From a virus (taxonomy: Duplodnaviria; Caudoviricetes), in IMG/VR virus record IMGVR_UViG_3300017766_003746, positions 1-59,307 of that record: 59,307 bases of DNA; one strand, written 5' to 3'. Within the stretch, counting starts at the first letter, position 1, and each line of letters begins with the position of its first letter. The notes beneath the pieces are model-generated. The model saw only the letters and a list, made by a program, of their open reading frames with translations. It did no database searches and was not told where the DNA came from. Shown here piece after piece: positions 2,022-52,673 of this stretch. The position numbers and the translations under genes were made by a program.

Positions 2022-2079
2022 GCCATCGCCCACCCGTTTGCGCTTGGCGAGGCCCACGGCGCTGGGTAAAGGGTTGGCC

Positions 2080-3438
2080 GTGCAACTCGAAATCCGAATG
2101 GTGCCGGTGGCGTGCCTGAACCCAGCCCCCTACAACCCCCGCAAAAAGCTGCGCCGCGGCGACCCCGAATACGAAGACATCGCCAACAGCATCCGCGAAT
2201 TCGGGCTGGTGCAAAACCTGGTGTGGAATGAGCGCACCGGCCACCTGGTCGGCGGCCACCAGCGGTTGACGGTGGCCCGCAACGAATTCAACGCCCACGA
2301 AATGCCGTGCGTGGTGGTGCAACTCGACGACGCGGCCGAAAAGCGCCTGAACATGATGCTGAACCGCATCGGGCAAGGCCTTTGGGACATGGGCAAGCTT
2401 TCCGAGCTGGTGCAAGGCCTGAACTCCGACGCCGTGGACGTCTACGGGCTGGGATTCACCGCCGCCGAAATTGAAGAGCTGCTGGGCACCAAGCCCAAGG
2501 CCACGAAGCGCGACCCCGACGACGAAGTGCTGCCCCCGAGCAAGCCGAAGACGCGCCCGGGCGACCTCTTCCAATTCGTGAGTGCCGACGGCCACCCCAC
2601 GCACTGGCTGCTTTGCGGCGACAGCACCGACCCGCACGACGTTGACCGGCTGATGAACGGCAACCGCGCACGCATCCTTTTCACCGACCCGCCCTACGGC
2701 GTGGACTACGACAACAGCCAGCGGGGCGACGGCCGCAAGGCCAAGGGCAAGATCGCCAACGACGCGCTGACCACCACCACGCTGGTGGACTTCCTGACCG
2801 CGTGTTTCCGCAACGCCCATGCCCACACCATGGGCGAGTGCGCCGCCTACGTGTTCCTCGCCAGCAAGTGCCACATCGAATTCGAAACGGCGCTGCGGGC
2901 GGCCGGGTGGGAAGTGCGGCAGCAACTGGTTTGGGCGAAGCACCTCGCGCTTTCGCGGGCGGATTACCACTGGGCGCATGAGCCCGCGCTCTATGCCGCC
3001 AAGGCGGGCAGCACCACGCCGTGGTTTGGCGACCGATGCCAGACAACGCTTTTTGCCGATGACCGGCCGCCCTTCGCCACGATGAAAAAAGACGAGCTGG
3101 TGGCGCTGCTGGAATCGATGACCAGCGCGGGCACCGTGTGGGATGAGAAGCGCGACCCCTCGAGCCAATACATTCACCCGACGCAAAAGCCGGTTTCGCT
3201 GGCCCGGCGGGCGATGCGAAACAGCACCCTGCCCCGTGACAACGTGCTGGACCTTTTCGGCGGCAGCGGCAGCACCCTGGTGGCGTGCGAAATCGACGGC
3301 CGCAACGCCTTCCTGATGGAGAAAGACCCCGGCTTTTGCGACGCCATCGTGCAACGCTACTTCGAAACCTTCGACGAAGTGCTGGTGATGAAGAACGGCG
3401 AGGAACTGAACCCCCTGACCTTTTGCCCGAATGAGTGA
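2080..3438 (+). CDS. ParB-like N-terminal domain fused to a DNA adenine methyltransferase
   Basis: LNPAPYNPRK..SIREFGLVQNLVWN..LVGGHQRL (ParB/Srx domain); FTDPPY, HPTQKPV, VLDLFGGSGST; start uncertain (GTG 2080 or ATG 2098). Confidence 0.9.
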   Translation: MQLEIRMVPVACLNPAPYNPRKKLRRGDPEYEDIANSIREFGLVQNLVWNERTGHLVGGHQRLTVARNEFNAHEMPCVVVQLDDAAEKRLNMMLNRIGQGLWDMGKLSELVQGLNSDAVDVYGLGFTAAEIEELLGTKPKATKRDPDDEVLPPSKPKTRPGDLFQFVSADGHPTHWLLCGDSTDPHDVDRLMNGNRARILFTDPPYGVDYDNSQRGDGRKAKGKIANDALTTTTLVDFLTACFRNAHAHTMGECAAYVFLASKCHIEFETALRAAGWEVRQQLVWAKHLALSRADYHWAHEPALYAAKAGSTTPWFGDRCQTTLFADDRPPFATMKKDELVALLESMTSAGTVWDEKRDPSSQYIHPTQKPVSLARRAMRNSTLPRDNVLDLFGGSGSTLVACEIDGRNAFLMEKDPGFCDAIVQRYFETFDEVLVMKNGEELNPLTFCPNE

Positions 3439-9783: not shown

Positions 9784-10449
9784 ATGACCGACAACAACAA
9801 CCTGGTGGCGTTTCCCGCCACGATTCCACAAGAGGGCCACGAATGGGTGGCCGCATTCCGCCAGCCCGTGCCCATGCAAGGGATGGCCAACCTCTGCAAA
9901 GCCATTGCCGAGTGCTACGGCGAAGACGCGAAGATTTCACCCACGGGTGAATGGATCGCGGTTTCCGGCAAGCGCCCCGGCGAATTCAAGCCGACGACGC
10001 GGCCGGCGCGAAACTGGCGCGTCTGCGAAGTGCACCCGGAAGACGCCGACGACGGCGGGGTTTTCACGGCGATCACGCCCGAGCTGGCCGCCGCGGCGAT
10101 GCTGAAGCGCCACCCCAGCGTGGCCGACTTCGACCGCCTTTACGTGTGGCCCGACGGCGAAGCGCCAGGCCCCGACAACCTGCTTTTCGTGCCCACCAAG
10201 GCCCTGCAATTCGCCGAAGCTGCGATGGCCAAGAAAGTGCCCGAGGAAGAGGAACTGCCGCTGCGCAAATGCGACTGCGGGCAAAGCATGGAGTTTGACA
10301 GCGACGTGCACAGCAACGGGATCGGCGACTACTTCGTGAAGTGCCCGTGCTGCGGTGCCGAAAGCAGCCAGGTGCAATGCGAGGGCCGACGGCAGGCCGT
10401 TGAACGATGGAACGCCCGCACCATGAAAGGCCACGATTTCGAAGGATAA
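9784..10449 (+). CDS. Hypothetical protein with C-terminal Lar-like (restriction alleviation) Zn ribbon
   Basis: LRKCDCG..VKCPCCGA..AVERWNAR. Confidence 0.6.
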   Translation: MTDNNNLVAFPATIPQEGHEWVAAFRQPVPMQGMANLCKAIAECYGEDAKISPTGEWIAVSGKRPGEFKPTTRPARNWRVCEVHPEDADDGGVFTAITPELAAAAMLKRHPSVADFDRLYVWPDGEAPGPDNLLFVPTKALQFAEAAMAKKVPEEEELPLRKCDCGQSMEFDSDVHSNGIGDYFVKCPCCGAESSQVQCEGRRQAVERWNARTMKGHDFEG

Positions 10450-10471
10450 CCCCCAACCCCACACCAACCCC

Positions 10472-13634: not shown

Positions 13635-16600
13635 ATGGCCGACAACATCACCACCCAACTGGCCGATGAAGCCAAGGCGCACACCATTGACCTGCTGCGG
13701 ATCGAAGCGGGGATGCGCAAGCAGGTGGTTGGCATGCTGGAAGAGCTGGAAACCGACCTGCTGAAGCAACTGGCCAGCACCGACCTGACCACGGCCAAAA
13801 AGGAACGGCTTCAGGCCTTCCTCGAGCAAACCAGCGCCCAAGTTTCCAGCGCCTACAAGCAGATCGCCGACATTGGCGAGGCGAACCTCGAAAAGGTGGC
13901 GACGATTACCAGCAAGCAGACGGCCAAGAGCCTTGACGCCAGCCTGAAGGTGAACCTCGGCACCGTGCTTTCCCCGCAGCAACTGACCGCCATCGCACGC
14001 GGGCCGGTGGTCGAAGGCAGCCCCATGAAAGACTGGTGGGAAGGCCAAGACATTGCCGCGCAACGGCGCTTTCGCGGGGCGATTCAGCAAGGGCTTTTGC
14101 TGGGTGAAGACATGGCGGCCATTCAACGGCGCGTGCGCGGCACCAAGGCCAGCGGCTACAGCGACGGGGCGCTTTCGGTTTCCAAGCGCGAAGCCCAAGC
14201 CCTGACCCGCACCGCGGTGCAATCGGTGGCCAACCAAGCGAAGCTGGACACCCTGAAGGAAAACGACGACGTCGTGAAGGGCATCGAATGGGTGGCGACG
14301 CTGGACGCCCGCACCACGAAAACGTGCATGGCGCTGGACGGCAAGCAGTGGCGCTTGCCCGACCTGAAGCCCATCGGGCACGACAAGCAGTTTCCCGGGC
14401 CGGTGGCGCACTGGGGATGCCGCAGCACGCAAGTGGCGGTGACCTATTCGTGGGCCGAGCTGGCGAAAAAGAAGCTGGCCGCCAAAAAGGGCGCGACCTT
14501 CCAAGAGGCCTTCCAAAAGCGGCTGCAAGAGCAGGGATTCACGCCCGAGGAAGCCGCCAAGATCGAAGCCAACCAACGCGCCAGCATGGACGGCCAAGTT
14601 TCCGATTCCAAGGACTGGCAGGCGTGGCTGAAGGGCAAGGGCGACGAATTCGCACTCGAAAAGCTGGGCCCCGGGCGCTTCAAGCTTTGGAAGGAAGGCA
14701 AGCTGACCCTTTCCGACCTGACCGACCAGCAGGGCCGGGAGCTGACCCTTGCCGAGCTGGAAGCCGCAATCGACGGCGGCAAACCCGCGCCCGAGACTGA
14801 AGGCCGCACCTTCGACTTCAAGCCGTCGGGTGGCGTGCCGAGCTACACCGCCGCACAGGAAGCCGCCGCCAAGGTGGCCGTGATGGCAGAGCAGCAGCAG
14901 GCCGCCGCCGCGAAGCTGGCCGAATATAAGGCGACCGCCGAAGGCCAGACGCTGAAAAACAAGTGGGCGAAAAAGGTCGACAGCGAACTGGGGGACGCCC
15001 CGGCCGCTGACAAGGTGGCGTGGGTGGAAGCCAAGGCCGCCGAAGAGCAGGCGGCGAAGAGCAAGGCCAGCGTGCTTTCCACGGCCAAGAAAAAGCTGCT
15101 GGCGGGCGAGGCACCGACCCCGGCGCAACAAAAGCTGATCGACAGCCTCACGCCCGAGGAAAAGCAGAATTTCGACGAAGCGGTGGCCGACGCCAAGGGC
15201 GCGGTGGCCGCCAAGCTGGCCGAAGACAACGCCGCGCAAGAACTGAAGGCGATGGCAGCGACCGGGCACCCGCTGGAAAAGCAGGCCGCAGCAACCGCGC
15301 CGATGAACGGCGGCAGCGCCGTCGAGCAACTGGCATTCGCCAAGGCCGACGCCAGCAGCAAGGCGCTTTCGACCCTGCAGCAGATTGCCACGGTGCCCGA
15401 GGGCCAGACGCTGAAGCACAAGAGCCTTGCCCAACTGCTGGGGGTGAAAGACGTCCAGACCGGCGACGCGATGACCAAACTCGCGAGCCACCCCGAGCCG
15501 TTGGAACTGCTGAAGCAGGTGGAAACCACCGCCGCCGAAAAGCAGGCACAGGCGAGCGCCGCGGCGAAGATCAGCGGGGCGAAAAAGAAGTGGCTGGCCG
15601 GGGAGCCATTCACGGCCGCACAGCAAGCCGCATGGGACACGCTGGCACCAGAGCAGCAACAAAGCTACCTCGACACGTGGGCCGAGCTGAAGGCCAAGGC
15701 CGTGCCCACGGTGCCGCCAGCCGCAGCCGGTGGCCAGACGCTGACCGCGCCCGACATCACGCCGCACGGACCAACGAATCAAGATACGTTGATCCCGCCG
15801 CCCGACGGGCTGGTGAAGCTGCAAGACCTGAGTGGATCCACCAAGCCGATTCTGACCGAAGACCCGGTGACCGGCAAAAAGTGGGTGGTGAAGGATTCCA
15901 GCCGGGGCGGTGGTGGCCCTGACCACTTCCAGAGCGAAGCGCTCGCCGATGCCCTTTACCGGGCCGCCGGTGCCAACGTGCCCGCTTCCGCGGTGACGAT
16001 GAAGGGCAAGGCCGCCATCAAGGTGGCCGAATACCTGGAAGGCGGCCAAACCCTTGGCCAGTGGCAGCAGGGGAAGAGCAAGGCGGAAATCGACGCGATG
16101 AACCGCAAGCTTCAAGACCACTTCGTCACCGACGCGCTGCTGGCCAACTGGGACGTGGCGGGCCTTTCCAACGACAACATTCTGGTGCTGAAGGATGGCA
16201 CGCCGGTGCGGATCGACAACGGCGGGGCGCTTTTCTTCCGCGCCCAAGGCGGTGCCAAGAAACTGCCGCCGGAAGTGGCCGAGCTGAAGACGCTCCGCGA
16301 CGCCAGCCTGAACCCGCAGACTGCGAAAATTTTCGCAGGCATCACCCAAGACCAGATCAACAGCCAGATTTCCGACCTGGTGGCCCGCAAGGCGGCGATT
16401 CTGGACGCCGCGAAGATCGACCCCAAGGTGCAAGCCGCGCTGAAGGCCCGCCTCGAGTGGCTGGAAAAGCAACTGCCAGCCGATGCCCGGAAAACCCCGG
16501 CCGCCGACCTCGCGCCGGCCGCGCCAGGCCAGATTCCCGCCGACATCGCCAAGCGGCTGGACACCGGCAAGCGCGGGGCGGGCACCGCACTGGTGGGCGA

Positions 16601-43686: not shown

Positions 43687-43713
43687 ACCCCAACCCCAAA
43701 CTTTTCCCACATC

Positions 43714-45846
43714 ATGACGACCAACAACACCGCCGCACCGGCCGCCCGCATCAGCGTGGTGGATTTCACGAACATCAAAGGATGCACCGCCAGGCACGAA
43801 CTGCCCGAGCTGGTGGCCATCGTAGCGCCCAACGGCATGGGCAAAACCGCGATTTCCGACGCGCTGCAACTGGCCTTGACCGGGAGCCACGCCGACTTCG
43901 GCAAGCAGGGCAAGGCGCTGATGGCGCTGGCCAGTGGCCCGGCCATGGACGTGGCCGCCACGCTGACCGACGGCCGCAAGATCGCCCGAAGCTGGCGCAT
44001 GGATGCCAAGGGCAGCGTGAAGGCGACCGCAGACGAGCCCGAGGGCTGGCCATCGGCCGACGTTTCCATGACGTTCAACCCGCGCACCTTCGTGGCGCTG
44101 AATGATCGCGAGCGGGTGGCCACGCTGCTGCGCTTGGCAGGCCAGACGACGCCGACCACGGCGAGCGTGGAAGCCCTGCGGGACATCCTCGAGGAAAAGG
44201 CCACGGGTGCCAAGCGCGTGACGCTTTCCGACTTGGATCCATTCGGCCCGAAGATGGCCGACGCCGGGACATTCGTCGAAGCCGCCGAAAGCGAGCTGGT
44301 GGAAGCCCGCAAAGCCCACAAGCGCGACATCACGCGGCTGGAAGCAGCCGTGAAAGGGTTGGAAGACGCCGCCCGGGGATCGACCGCACCCACAAAGGTC
44401 GAAGCCGCCGAAGTGGAAGCCATCGCCGCCGAAGTGCAAAAGCTGGCTTCAGAGCACGCCCGGCTTTCCGAGCGCCACAGGGCCGCCGCACGCCTTCGCC
44501 AGCGCGTGGCCGAGATTGGCACCGCCCCCGAGTGGACCGAAGACGACGACGCGGCACTGGTGCGCGTGACCGAAGACTTGCGGAAGCTGACCGAAGCAGA
44601 GCAGGCCGAGCAAGCCGACCGCATGGCGCTGCGCAACGTCCTCGCGCAAGGCCCCGAGCCCGAGGAAGTGGCCGAAGCCAACGAACGCCTCGCCACGGCA
44701 CTGCCCGACAAGCCGGAAATGGAACCCGCAGCGATTGCCGCGGGGATCCGCGAAGCCGAAGACGAACTGGCCACCGCCCGCGTGCGCATCACCGACTTGG
44801 AAGCCGAAGTGGCGAAGCTGAACGGCCAACTTGGCATGGAGTGCTGCCCGACCTGCGGCGCGGCCGGCGACGACCTCAAGGCCCGCTTGGCGGAAACGCT
44901 TCAGCCCTACCTTGAAACCGCGGTGATCCGCCTCGGCAACAACCGCCAGCGCGAAATCGACGCCACCAAGCGCATTGCCGAGCTGAAGACCATCGGCCAA
45001 GGCTGGCACGACTACGACGCCGCGGTGAAGGCCTGCGAGGAAGCCCGGGAGATTCTGGACCGCGACGAACGGGTGGAACGCGACGCCGCCGAAATTCGCG
45101 CCCGGATCGATGCCCGCGCCGCTGAATTCGTGGACCCGGCCACCAACAGCCGACCCAACCGGCAAGAGCTGGAAAGCCAGCACGCCGACCTTCAGCGCCG
45201 CAGCTCAAACGCCCGCGCCCTGAAAGAACTTGGCGACGTGCCAACCGCCGACGAAGTCGACGCGCTGATGCGGCTGGTGGGCGAAAACGAGCACGCCCGC
45301 GGTGCCAAGGAAGCGGAGCTGCGCACGCTGAAGGAAGGGCTTCGCGTGTGGCAGGAATTCGGGGCACAGGAAACCCACATCACGCGGATGCGCGAAGAGC
45401 TGGAAGACGCCAGGCGCAAACTGGAAACCACCGAAGAGCTGATCACCGCCACGCGGGCCGCCGGTGCCGACCTTGCCGCGGCGATTGCCGGGCCGATTGG
45501 CGAGGGCCTGCGATTCTTCACCGACGGGGTGCTGCCCGGTGCCGTGAAGGTTGACGCCGCGCTGGGGATCTTCCTCGAGACGGCAGAGCGTGGCTTGCGG
45601 CCATTCGATGCCTTCAGCGGATCCGAAAAAGCGGTGGTGGGTTTCGCCTTGGCGGCCACGCTGGCGGCGCACACGCCGCTGAAGATCGCGCTGCTTGACG
45701 AAGCCAGCACGATGGACCGCGCACGGAAAACCGCCTTCCTGCAACGGGTGGCCGAAGCCGTGGAAACCGGCCGCCTCGCGCAAGCCGTGGTGATCGACCA
45801 CGACGTGGCAGCCTACGCCGCACCATGGCAAACGATTTCCCTCTGA
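43714..45846 (+). CDS. Rad50/SbcC-like SMC-family ATPase
   Basis: APNGMGKT Walker A, coiled coil with CPTC zinc hook, FSGSEK signature, LLDE Walker B. Confidence 0.9.
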   Translation: MTTNNTAAPAARISVVDFTNIKGCTARHELPELVAIVAPNGMGKTAISDALQLALTGSHADFGKQGKALMALASGPAMDVAATLTDGRKIARSWRMDAKGSVKATADEPEGWPSADVSMTFNPRTFVALNDRERVATLLRLAGQTTPTTASVEALRDILEEKATGAKRVTLSDLDPFGPKMADAGTFVEAAESELVEARKAHKRDITRLEAAVKGLEDAARGSTAPTKVEAAEVEAIAAEVQKLASEHARLSERHRAAARLRQRVAEIGTAPEWTEDDDAALVRVTEDLRKLTEAEQAEQADRMALRNVLAQGPEPEEVAEANERLATALPDKPEMEPAAIAAGIREAEDELATARVRITDLEAEVAKLNGQLGMECCPTCGAAGDDLKARLAETLQPYLETAVIRLGNNRQREIDATKRIAELKTIGQGWHDYDAAVKACEEAREILDRDERVERDAAEIRARIDARAAEFVDPATNSRPNRQELESQHADLQRRSSNARALKELGDVPTADEVDALMRLVGENEHARGAKEAELRTLKEGLRVWQEFGAQETHITRMREELEDARRKLETTEELITATRAAGADLAAAIAGPIGEGLRFFTDGVLPGAVKVDAALGIFLETAERGLRPFDAFSGSEKAVVGFALAATLAAHTPLKIALLDEASTMDRARKTAFLQRVAEAVETGRLAQAVVIDHDVAAYAAPWQTISL

Positions 45847-45856
45847 TGGGGGGAAG

Positions 45857-45887
45857 GTCGCCCGGGAAACCGGGCGCGGATTGAAAC
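45857..45887 (+). CRISPR. Solitary type I-C-like CRISPR repeat, unit 1
   Basis: GTCGCCCGGGAAACCGGGCGCGGATTGAAAC: GTCGC start, 7-bp hairpin, GGATTGAAAC end. Confidence 0.8.
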
Positions 45888-45919
45888 AAACCCTCTGAAT
45901 GGAGGCCGGTGCATAGCAA

Positions 45920-45935: not shown

Positions 45936-45945
45936 TGCCCGTTTG

Positions 45946-45984
45946 GGGCGGGGATTCTTCGGGATTCCCGCCCTTTTTCTTTTT
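45946..45984 (+). terminator. Intrinsic terminator with UUCG loop
   Basis: GGGCGGGGATTC-TTCG-GGATTCCCGCCC followed by TTTTTCTTTTT. Confidence 0.85.
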
Positions 45985-49980: not shown

Positions 49981-50369
49981 ACACCCTGACCCGTGGTCGC
50001 CTGACCGCCTACCCGCACGACAACGTGCTGCGGTGGCGCGTGCAATCCAACAGCCGCCCCGACATCGAACACGTGGTGGACCTCGGCACGTGGCACGGCA
50101 ACGGTTCATGCAGTTGCGAGCACTTCGAATTCCGGTTGGCACCGTTGCTTCGCGACGGCATCGGCCGGGCGGGAAAGGCGACCCGCTGCGGCCACATCAT
50201 GGTGGCGCGTGAAGCCTTCGCCAACCACATGATTCAGATCCTGAGTGCGAAGGCCGCAGAGCTGGCCCGAGCCACCGAACCTTGCCCCGAGTGCCAGGGC
50301 GATGCCGAAGACATCGAAGGCAACCCCTGCCCGTGCTGCGAAGGTGCGGGGGCTATTTCAGCAGCATGA
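49962..50369 (+). CDS. SWIM-type Zn-finger protein
   Basis: CSCEHF..CGHI plus CPECQG..CPCCEG. Confidence 0.7.
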   Translation: MGKPTLNTLTRGRLTAYPHDNVLRWRVQSNSRPDIEHVVDLGTWHGNGSCSCEHFEFRLAPLLRDGIGRAGKATRCGHIMVAREAFANHMIQILSAKAAELARATEPCPECQGDAEDIEGNPCPCCEGAGAISAA

Positions 50370-50385
50370 TGCGCAAATTTTCGCA
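50370..50385 (+). repeat. Palindrome A copy 14, C variant (abuts a stop codon)
   Basis: TGCGCAAATTTTCGCA. Confidence 0.93.
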
Positions 50386-50396
50386 CCCCCACGACC

Positions 50397-51199: not shown

Positions 51200-51234
51200 T
51201 TTTCCCAACCACCCCCAACCCCAAAACGACGACA

Positions 51235-52263
51235 ATGCAAGACCACCCGATTGCGGGACTTTTCCCGCTGATTCCCGATGCCGAGCTGCAAGAGCTGGCC
51301 GAATCCATCCAACGAAGCGGACAGCGCGACGACATCGTGCTTTTCGAAGGCAAGATCCTTGACGGCCGCAACCGCTTTCGAGCGTGCGGCATTGCCGGGG
51401 TGAAGCCGCGCACCCGGGTTTTCGACCCGAAGAAAGACGGGCCGAGCCCGCTCCGCTTCGTGCTGGACCTCAACCTTTCCCGCCGCCACCTGAGCACCAG
51501 CCAACGCGCCGCGATTGCGGCCGAAAGCCTGAAGATCATGGAAAGCATGGCGAAGGCCGCAGCGGGTGCCAGCGCCACGCCGACGAAGCCCGCCCAGCTG
51601 AAGGCCTACGACCCGAGCGAAGCCGCCGACGAAGAGGGCGAAGCCGTGGTGACCGGGCCGACGGTGCCCCAGGCTGAAGCCATCGTCGAAGCCGGGAACC
51701 CCGACGACGACGTGCTGCCGGAAGACCGGCCGGAAGAAACCAAGCCGACGGTGGCAGAAACCGCGGCATCCATGGGCGTTTCCAAGCGGAGCGTCGAGCA
51801 CGCCAAGGGCCTGACCCCCGAGCACCTCGAGGAAGTGAAGAGCGGCAAGAAAACGCTTCACGCCGCCAAGCAGGAAGAGGAAGCCGAAAAGCTGAAGGCA
51901 CAGCGCAAGGAAGCCATCAAGCGCGTGGCCAAGGTGTGCGGGAAGGAATTCGCCGACGCCATGGCCCGCAACACCATCCTGAAGACCGTGAAGGAACTGG
52001 CGGCATTCCTCGCGTTGGATGACGACCAGATGCGGGCCGTTCAACCGCTGGTTTCGACCGGCTGGAAGGTGAAGAAAGCCCTTGCCCACGCGCTGGACGC
52101 CATCACCGGCGACAGCACGATTTCCGACCTCCTGAACAAAGCCATCGCGGCCGGCGGCGATGAATTCACCGTGGTGGTGAATGGCTGGGAAGTGACCGCC
52201 ATCAACGTGGGAGCCAGCCACAACAGCGACGGCACCCCGGCGAAGAACCCCGCGAAAAAGTGA
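51235..52263 (+). CDS. ParB/Spo0J-like protein with HTH
   Basis: LAESIQ..G.RD.I..ILDGRNRFRAC..NL.RRHL..SQRA; VAETAASMGVSKRSVEHAK HTH. Confidence 0.85.
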   Translation: MQDHPIAGLFPLIPDAELQELAESIQRSGQRDDIVLFEGKILDGRNRFRACGIAGVKPRTRVFDPKKDGPSPLRFVLDLNLSRRHLSTSQRAAIAAESLKIMESMAKAAAGASATPTKPAQLKAYDPSEAADEEGEAVVTGPTVPQAEAIVEAGNPDDDVLPEDRPEETKPTVAETAASMGVSKRSVEHAKGLTPEHLEEVKSGKKTLHAAKQEEEAEKLKAQRKEAIKRVAKVCGKEFADAMARNTILKTVKELAAFLALDDDQMRAVQPLVSTGWKVKKALAHALDAITGDSTISDLLNKAIAAGGDEFTVVVNGWEVTAINVGASHNSDGTPAKNPAKK

Positions 52264-52269
52264 CACCTT

Positions 52270-52300
52270 GTCGCCCGGGCGACCGGGCGCGGATAGAAAC
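52270..52300 (+). CRISPR. Solitary type I-C-like CRISPR repeat, unit 2
   Basis: GTCGCCCGGGCGACCGGGCGCGGATAGAAAC, 28/31 identical to unit 1. Confidence 0.72.
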
Positions 52301-52324
52301 GAAAACCACCAACGCACCAACACC

Positions 52325-52591
52325 ATGCCGAAAGCCACCACCGCCAAGAAAGCCGCCCGCCGCCGCAAAGTGATTTGCCGCGCCCTGACCTGCAACGTGC
52401 CGACCAAAAGCGCGAAATGGGATGCGCTCATGAGATTGAGCACGCCCGAGCTGAAGAACCTGCTTCGTGCCGCCGGGATCGGGATCCCGAAGGAAAAAGC
52501 CGCCATGGCCGACCGCCTTGCCGAGCATGAAGCCGTGGCGGTGGCCGTGACGACCGAAGCGGTCGTATTCGGCCGACCCGGCGCGAAATGA
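52325..52591 (+). CDS. Small basic hypothetical protein
   Basis: ATG after a C/A-rich leader, 24 nt after repeat unit 2. Confidence 0.65.
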   Translation: MPKATTAKKAARRRKVICRALTCNVPTKSAKWDALMRLSTPELKNLLRAAGIGIPKEKAAMADRLAEHEAVAVAVTTEAVVFGRPGAK

Positions 52592-52633
52592 TTCCTGAAG
52601 CCGCCCATTCCGGGGGGGATCGGCGGCAAGGAA

Positions 52634-52673
52634 AAGCGCCCCGGGTGGGAGACTGCCCGGGGCGCTTGATTTT
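52634..52673 (+). terminator. Probable intrinsic terminator
   Basis: AAGCGCCCCGGGTGG-GAGA-CTGCCCGGGGCGCTT followed by GATTTT. Confidence 0.6.

Follow-up and report, generated by a model that had tools for sequence, protein, structure and literature searches.

We regard it as somewhat probable that a 31-nt element at positions 52270 to 52300 of this phage genome (U2) was copied from a type I-C CRISPR array as a solitary repeat unit, the second of two in the genome, and that it is a RacrIC-like candidate RNA anti-CRISPR that would be co-transcribed within an operon. U2 has the exact build of a type I-C repeat, is truly solitary, lies in sense orientation between two genes and is far better conserved than its flanks.

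The window, by which we mean the whole stretch of 59,307 nt analysed here, is a complete 59-kb siphovirus-like phage genome. The IMG/VR record of 59,307 bp has 123-bp direct terminal repeats and an estimated completeness of 100%, and the whole-phage G+C content is 63.8%. All plausible genes lie on the plus strand, as do 61 of 61 naive ORF calls. PHROG matches include two DNA methyltransferases, the large terminase, head morphogenesis proteins, the tape measure and tail proteins. The two methyltransferase genes, at 133-1563 and 2038-3438, likely have anti-restriction functions; one of them is fused to a ParB-like N-terminal domain. The phage lineage is uncultured and comes from freshwater and wastewater. 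A search of INPHARED phages gave a single match, a 148-nt helicase stretch, and IMG/VR yielded three relatives with the helicase and two with the small gene behind U2. The region from about 42.9 to 55 kb is a replication and recombination module with genes for an SbcC/SMC-like protein, a UvrD-like helicase, a Holliday-junction resolvase, a ParB-like protein and a DEAD/ResIII helicase. The two units and the features around them are listed here.

45857..45887, plus strand: U1, solitary type I-C-like repeat unit with a GAAA loop and the canonical handle (CGGATTGAAAC)
45945..45974, plus strand: terminator-like hairpin about 60 nt past U1, with 13 pairs and a T-run
50365..50390, plus strand: nearest copy upstream of U2 of an 18-nt palindrome, a possible operon start
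51235..52263, plus strand: ParB-like ORF of 342 aa upstream of U2 (phrog_21315, 3.8e-21; phrog_4715, ParB-like partition protein, 1e-11)
52270..52300, plus strand: U2, solitary type I-C-like repeat unit with a GT overhang, 7-bp stem, GCGA loop and handle (CGGATAGAAAC)
52301..52324, plus strand: 24-nt C/A-rich leader of the 88-aa ORF without a Shine-Dalgarno (SD) motif; a similar leader without a repeat is found in the relative G003
52325..52591, plus strand: 88-aa basic protein with a predicted SAP-like helix-extended-helix core (from homologues, profile search and AlphaFold)
52636..52673, plus strand: intrinsic terminator-like hairpin that would close the operon (-35.1 kcal/mol), followed by a U-tract (UUGAUUUU)

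Both units are intergenic, on the sense strand of the replication module and 6.4 kb apart. They agree at 28 of 31 bases, the same count that a sequence-only reading of this DNA had given, and U1 is the only other match to U2 in the window at three or fewer mismatches; 100 dinucleotide shuffles produced 0 matches to the U2 31-mer at that limit. That reading had also described how the units differ, and every change is where it said: loop positions 11 and 12 (GAAA to GCGA, both of them GNRA loops) and handle position 26 (T to A), with the 7-bp stem CGCCCGG/CCGGGCG identical in both. Each unit folds as 2 + 7 + 4 + 7 + 11 nt at -16.3 kcal/mol, with z-scores of -2.7 to -2.8. The surroundings of U2 are likewise as reported. 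The stop codon of the ParB-like gene (TGA, 52261-52263) is followed by 6 nt (CACCTT), U2, another 24 nt and the ATG of the 88-aa ORF at 52325, behind which comes the terminator. U1 begins 10 nt past the stop of the SbcC/SMC-like gene and stands before a terminator. Outside the 31 nt the flanks of U1 and U2 have nothing in common. Hence, what the two places share is exactly one CRISPR repeat.

U2 is not coding; a TTG-initiated 107-aa frame that runs through it is not kept in the relative G001 and was rejected. The label "ParB-like" for the upstream gene stands in PHROGs (phrog_4715 at E 1e-11) and finds no backing in Pfam, where the protein matched 0 families at E<=0.01. Around U1 there is a direct repeat, CCCTCTGA(T/AT)GG, on both sides of the unit (45838-45848 and 45891-45902), which takes in the upstream stop codon. 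It may be an insertion scar. The second copy is absent from G001, and an exact 8-mer repeat of this kind was equalled or bettered at 192 of 5000 random places, which makes it a weak signal.

The type I-C repeat consists of a 2-nt 5' overhang, a 7-bp stem and an 11-nt 3' overhang (PMC8524198), and this is also the build of U1 and U2. The ends of U1, 5' GTCGCC and 3' GGCGCGGATTGAAAC, are identical in the repeats of the arrays that we found: one on a metagenome contig with 49 matches, one on an IMG/VR contig with 126 repeats and one in Thiocystis minor (G002, contig C155). The last lies about 4 kb downstream of a Cas8c/Csd1 gene (Cas_Csd1, 582 bits), on the same strand, and the phage units face the same way as the cas genes and the array in this genome. 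The phage units resemble the repeats of this cas8c-side array in their length of 31 nt, the GT overhang, a 7-bp G+C stem, a 4-nt loop and the handle CGGATTGAAAC, which U1 matches at 11 of 11 bases and U2 at 10 of 11. Unlike the array repeats, they are solitary, have other inner stem bases and a GNRA loop instead of UCAC, and U2 has an A at handle base 6. What separates U1 from the 49-match array is the loop and a flip of the innermost base pair from C-G to G-C, and nothing else. The best Rfam family of both units is CRISPR-DR9, with scores of 29.6 bits for U1 and 24.5 bits for U2 against a gathering score of 45; at the gathering threshold neither unit has a match in Rfam. There is good support in these comparisons for both units being type I-C-like. 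An array with exactly the stem of the phage units was found neither in one genome per species for 185,579 species, nor in JGI metagenome contigs, nor in 301 genomes of the Thiocystis order.

Single units with the same handle also occur on six further IMG/VR contigs. Two contigs with similar flanks each carry one solitary I-C-like unit (L027 6161-6191, minus strand; L034 4431-4461, plus strand), and between the stems of these two units there is one compensatory change, C-G to G-C, and another from G-U to G-C. On an unrelated viral contig there is a solitary unit with the handle variant of U2, GGATAGAAAC (L033 7867-7897). We compared the loops of the window units and of L018, L019, L027, L034, L033, L006, L030 and L035 with those of the arrays L025, L029/L031 and L012. 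The loops of lone units with this handle are GNRA (4 of 4 in the phage lineage, plus GUGA in contigs from sequencing runs), UUCG (2), CUUG (2) and UCGC (2); in the arrays the loop is UCAC in 3 of 3. Extra-stable tetraloops (GNRA, UUCG and CUUG) are present in 8 of 10 hairpin-forming solitary units and 0 of 3 arrays, a sample that is small and was selected by pattern. Judging from these loops, lone repeats seem to trade the UCAC of the arrays for extra-stable tetraloops. If this is true, the pattern would be the mark of repeats adapted to folding inside long mRNAs, and it could be a simple sequence mark that separates functional solitary repeats from array debris.

In the relative G001 (59,519 bp) both units are present where the window has them, each with 30 of 31 bases unchanged. 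The adjoining non-coding stretches keep 2 of 9, 18 of 24, 7 of 13 and 16 of 31 positions; pooled, the units keep 60 of 62 positions and the non-coding flanks 43 of 77 (Fisher p 1e-8). The units are also better conserved than the neighbouring coding DNA (221 of 267 positions of the 88-aa ORF are kept), and the spacing of unit, 24 nt and ATG is exactly preserved. Four of 24 sequencing runs were examined, as assembled contigs. Three DNA runs, which belong to three studies (wastewater, freshwater and aquatic), have contigs with U2; its only internal change, at 52280 in the loop (position 11), is a C to T that two of the three runs show. In all, U2 is kept in five sampled genomes or populations (the window, G001, X2, X3 and X4).

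The loops seen in the phage lineage are GAAA, GCAA, GCGA and GUGA, all of the GNRA class. Six substitutions are seen among the units: three at position 11 and one each at 1, 12 and 26. They lie in the loop, the 5' overhang and one handle base. None of the six falls on the 14 stem bases or on G10 and A13 of the loop, which has a chance of 0.013, calculated from few events that are not independent. For BhaCas5c, changes in the loop and the 5' overhang did not inhibit processing and mutations in the 3' overhang can inhibit it (PMC8524198). T26A apart, the substitution pattern fits a constraint for recognition by Cas5c. Selection on RNA structure had been suggested from the differences between U1 and U2; the wider substitution pattern agrees, as it fits a hairpin constraint.

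G003, a more distant relative (41.7 kb, 80% complete), has synteny with the window and an 89-aa homologue of the small gene, and it has neither unit. Its leader contains AGAAAC without a repeat, and A26 of U2 could be a relic of a junction rather than a selected change. At the place of U2 there is another, nested hairpin in this genome, with CCCGGG arms around a TCGCG/CGCGA stem (L007 2865-2915); a search of Rfam with the intergenic region, this hairpin included, gave no match and nothing CRISPR-like. In G004 a different 90-aa ORF occupies the slot between the ParB-like and helicase genes. Hence, this slot is variable. The linkage of repeat and gene, which the sequence-only reading pointed to as a check, holds in two of the three phages with the gene and breaks in G003, where the gene is found without the units. 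It follows that the 88-aa gene and the repeat are not obligately linked.

U2 would be transcribed within an operon that runs from the resolvase through a 113-aa ORF, the ParB-like gene, U2 and the 88-aa ORF to the terminator. U1 would stand at the end of the transcription unit before it. The hairpin at 52636-52673 has compensatory changes in both G001 and G003; a consensus terminator scan omitted it because its loop exceeds the limit of the scan. The 18-nt palindrome (ATGCGAAAATTTTCGCAT and close variants) has 13 intergenic copies in the genome, at 196, 6391, 6775, 13603, 20737, 24633, 27970, 36141, 42867, 45915, 49063, 50365 and 55074, often beside short G+C hairpins. Two of the copies end about 10 nt ahead of ATGs at 13635 and 50397, and the motif is probably a phage promoter or operator. 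Between 45000 and 55500 a scan found 0 sigma-70-like promoters, and the sigma-70 consensus may not be that of the host. Hence, it is operon logic only that speaks for transcription of the units. One selection criterion for Racr candidates was a promoter no more than 250 bp upstream, and transcription of RacrIC1 comes from the promoter of the gene ahead of it (PMC10651486). The predicted probability of the stem in its context is 0.87-0.99 for U1. For U2, whose hairpin competes with other folds, it varies with the context: 0.23 over one stretch of 121 nt, 0.78-0.84 over other stretches. One run (X14), labelled RNA-Seq and flagged "probably DNA", has a 190-nt contig over 52298-52485; assembled contigs cannot show RNA ends, so this contig is no evidence of processing or expression of U2.

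Translation of the 88-aa ORF can be considered separately from the repeat. An SD-like word stands at only 6 of the 61 naive ORF starts. Gene starts of the non-SD type are found throughout the genome, for example at 51210-51234, 43689-43713 and 10447-10471, with C/A-rich leaders such as CCCCAACCCC or CACCAAC. Starts that lack SD motifs and C/A-rich leaders hint at a host with non-SD initiation. The leader of the 88-aa ORF is like those of other genes of the phage; hence its translation signals are independent of the repeat.

The 88-aa gene is a real gene, as judged from nine homologues with 47-95% identity. Its product is basic, with a pI of 10.55 and 18 K+R versus 7 D+E. Its family profile, run against 1.84 billion representatives, found 54 matches at E<=0.001, among them longer multi-SAP proteins, which match the 88-aa family in three to six tandem stretches; five of the seven longer proteins scanned have strong Pfam SAP repeats (E 1.7e-35 to 1.2e-63). 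The 88-aa protein itself, compared directly with Pfam SAP (PF02037), reaches 14.3 bits (E 0.032) against a cut-off of 23.9 bits. Its AlphaFold model has a mean pLDDT of 60, with three helices (residues 28-67) at 75-83 and low values in the rest. Foldseek with this model returned nothing at E<=0.001; several of the top-ranked chains are SAP domains, all with E above 1. In a profile search of PDB sequences the best match of the family is the C-terminal region of Ku70, at E 0.078. We read the product as a small, basic, SAP-like nucleic-acid binder, which is a prediction. There was no Acr among the 186 Foldseek matches of the model at E<=10, and the PDB profile search gave no likeness to a solved Acr, with no match below E 0.078. 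The ORF has no match in PHROGs and two sub-threshold matches only in Pfam (PADR1_N and SAP). The ORF therefore carries no sign of an Acr in these searches, a result with which a new Acr would also be compatible.

The best partial match to the repeat within 200 nt on either side is 16/31 for U2 and 19/31 for U1. These values are inside the genome-wide null and below the SRUFinder limit for solitary units, a flank identity below 70% (PMC10651486). There are no further copies of the handle in the window, and the other two of four handle matches are at chance level. It is very improbable, in our view, that the handle of U2 and the sequence downstream of it form a crRNA-like guide, be it a Cracr (crlRNA) or a "one-repeat homing cassette", that sends the host Cascade to the host cas promoter or to sibling phages without the insert. 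Viral crlRNAs, type I-C examples included, have been described (Liu et al., bioRxiv 10.1101/2024.10.29.618823), and the likeness is real in that a phage-borne, repeat-derived RNA is directed against the host's own Cas proteins. However, in crlRNAs as described in that preprint a spacer with a match to a host cas or toxin promoter is flanked at either end by repeat-like sequence, and the phage units, unlike these, have no second repeat and no conserved spacer; repeats flanking a short spacer were found at neither U1 nor U2. Not even a degenerate second repeat is present within 200 nt, and what comes after U2 is the phage's own leader and the start of an ORF. After U1 the window and G001 are identical at 16 of 31 columns, with 11 gaps. 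This sequence has diverged, hence no guide is conserved. The type I-C PAM is TTC. In G003, the one relative without repeats, TGACA (U2 site) and GAG (U1 site) precede the homologous sequence instead. A different use of U2, and the main idea of the sequence-only reading, would be that of a cis-acting switch, in which cutting or binding by Cas5c at U2 alters expression of the 88-aa gene and the phage senses an active I-C system. With Cas5c staying on the handle and Cas7 taking up 6 nt per subunit, four Cas7 would fill the 24-nt leader as far as the ATG. The gene would then more likely be repressed, or uncoupled from the cistron upstream, than activated. [quoted passage not shown] Against this, G003 has the gene and a similar leader with no repeat, and the product is SAP-like and without likeness to Acrs. 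U1 has no gene behind it, only a terminator, and a role in gene control is thus not needed to explain the units. We consider the switch unlikely. The more specific proposal of the sequence-only reading, a dedicated CRISPR-sensing leader for an Acr, finds no support here: the gene lacks the repeat in G003, has a C/A-rich leader of its own, and encodes a SAP-like protein that resembles neither Acrs nor any annotated PHROG.

One could also argue that the units have no present CRISPR role. U2 could be a hairpin that protects or processes mRNA 3' ends between cistrons, a site of DNA recombination, or what an illegitimate recombination event with an array of the host has left behind. Both units stand close behind stop codons (6 nt for U2, 10 nt for U1), as protective hairpins do, and a solitary copy with the same stem lies among housekeeping genes in Thiocystis minor. 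In addition, AGAAAC is present in the repeat-less leader of G003, and the 3' end of U2 together with T26A may represent a microhomology junction. What a plain structural hairpin leaves unexplained, however, is that the unpaired handle is conserved: the 11-nt handle and the GT overhang would be needless for it, yet 10 or 11 of the 11 handle bases are kept and agree with those of true arrays. Both units also end exactly at the borders of a CRISPR repeat, share no flanks and are better conserved than neighbouring coding DNA. An explanation outside CRISPR is not likely, then, though it deserves some weight. The switch and an RNA decoy can coexist, and they can be combined in one scheme: U1 and U2 would be matched sponges for Cas proteins in early operons, and U2 would also be a sensor, with Cas7 polymerising, once Cas5c has cut and holds the handle, over the 24-nt leader and the mRNA of the SAP-like gene (about 290 nt). 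This would soak up Cascade and, only where the I-C system of the cell is active, silence that gene or uncouple it. This combined scheme seems to us decidedly unlikely.

In our search for a host, an exact scan of one genome per species for 185,579 species gave a single copy, which is solitary, chromosomal and not part of a prophage, in Thiocystis minor. A scan of 301 genomes of the Thiocystis order at two or fewer mismatches matched 1 of 301, and this was the same copy. It has the stem of the phage units and a CUUG loop (L006 1364-1394, G002:C65) and lies between the gene for an EF-hand protein and cytochrome c genes, far from the cas locus; it may be a crRNA-like regulator of the host or an orphan. 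JGI metagenome contigs gave 0 matches to the exact stem pattern, and a second metagenome scan with the inner base pair freed gave two arrays. Of 230 spacers from seven loci (L025, L026, L029, L031, L032, L010 and L012), 0 match the phage. One of them has a 20-nt partial match, and no ungapped match reached 22/32; a separate comparison of spacers with the phage gave only matches of 19 nt or less.

The RNA decoy remains our preferred reading of U2, and the "second Racr" that the sequence-only reading had named as an alternative is the best fit to published precedent. RacrIC1 lies 11 nt past acrIC5, shares one bicistronic RNA with it and inhibits a type I-C system, and the effect of RacrIF1, which depends on its dose, comes from drawing Cas proteins into a subcomplex that is aberrant (PMC10651486). 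On this model, Cas5c (Cas5d) of the host would bind the base of the U2 hairpin and the handle and cut after the stem, at a site predicted between 52289 and 52290. Cas5c would then stay on the 11-nt handle, and Cas7 and other parts of Cascade would load onto phage RNA that is not a guide. The I-C proteins of the host would in this way be drawn off real crRNAs early in infection. U2 would owe its place before the 88-aa gene to an insertion in the accessory slot, variable in content, that separates the ParB-like gene from the helicase gene, and there would be no dedicated partnership between U2 and the 88-aa gene. Several results speak against the decoy: no array with exactly this stem and no spacer that matches the phage turned up in the sets searched, the Rfam scores stay below gathering, no sigma-70-like promoter is predicted nearby, the U2 hairpin has competing folds, T26A lies in the 3' overhang, and G003 has neither unit.

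The likeness to RacrIC1 of a Bifidobacterium pseudocatenulatum prophage (Camara-Wilpert et al. 2023, PMC10651486) consists of a single sense I-C repeat a few nt past an upstream stop codon, on a polycistronic RNA, which for U2 is presumed from the operon. Unlike RacrIC1 as described in that paper, U2 has a ParB-like gene and not a known acr upstream, and a further gene downstream on the same putative transcript. The phage also has two units 6.4 kb apart, and its units are candidates predicted from the sequence. The same survey, which included IMG/VR3, describes 2,103 viral solitary repeat units (SRUs). Like the SRUs that SRUFinder selects there, U1 and U2 are intergenic, match a CRISPR repeat and have no partial repeat in their flanks; unlike these, no database repeat with the stem of the phage units was found.

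The principle of a phage RNA decoy was published in 2023, and the lone repeats described here are most likely another example of it and not a new type of switch. If U2 is active, it would add one more natural example to the type I-C RNA anti-CRISPRs, and this from a phage lineage of freshwater and wastewater that is uncultured. Two features stand out: one genome carries two separate units with different handles, and one of them is placed between two cistrons.
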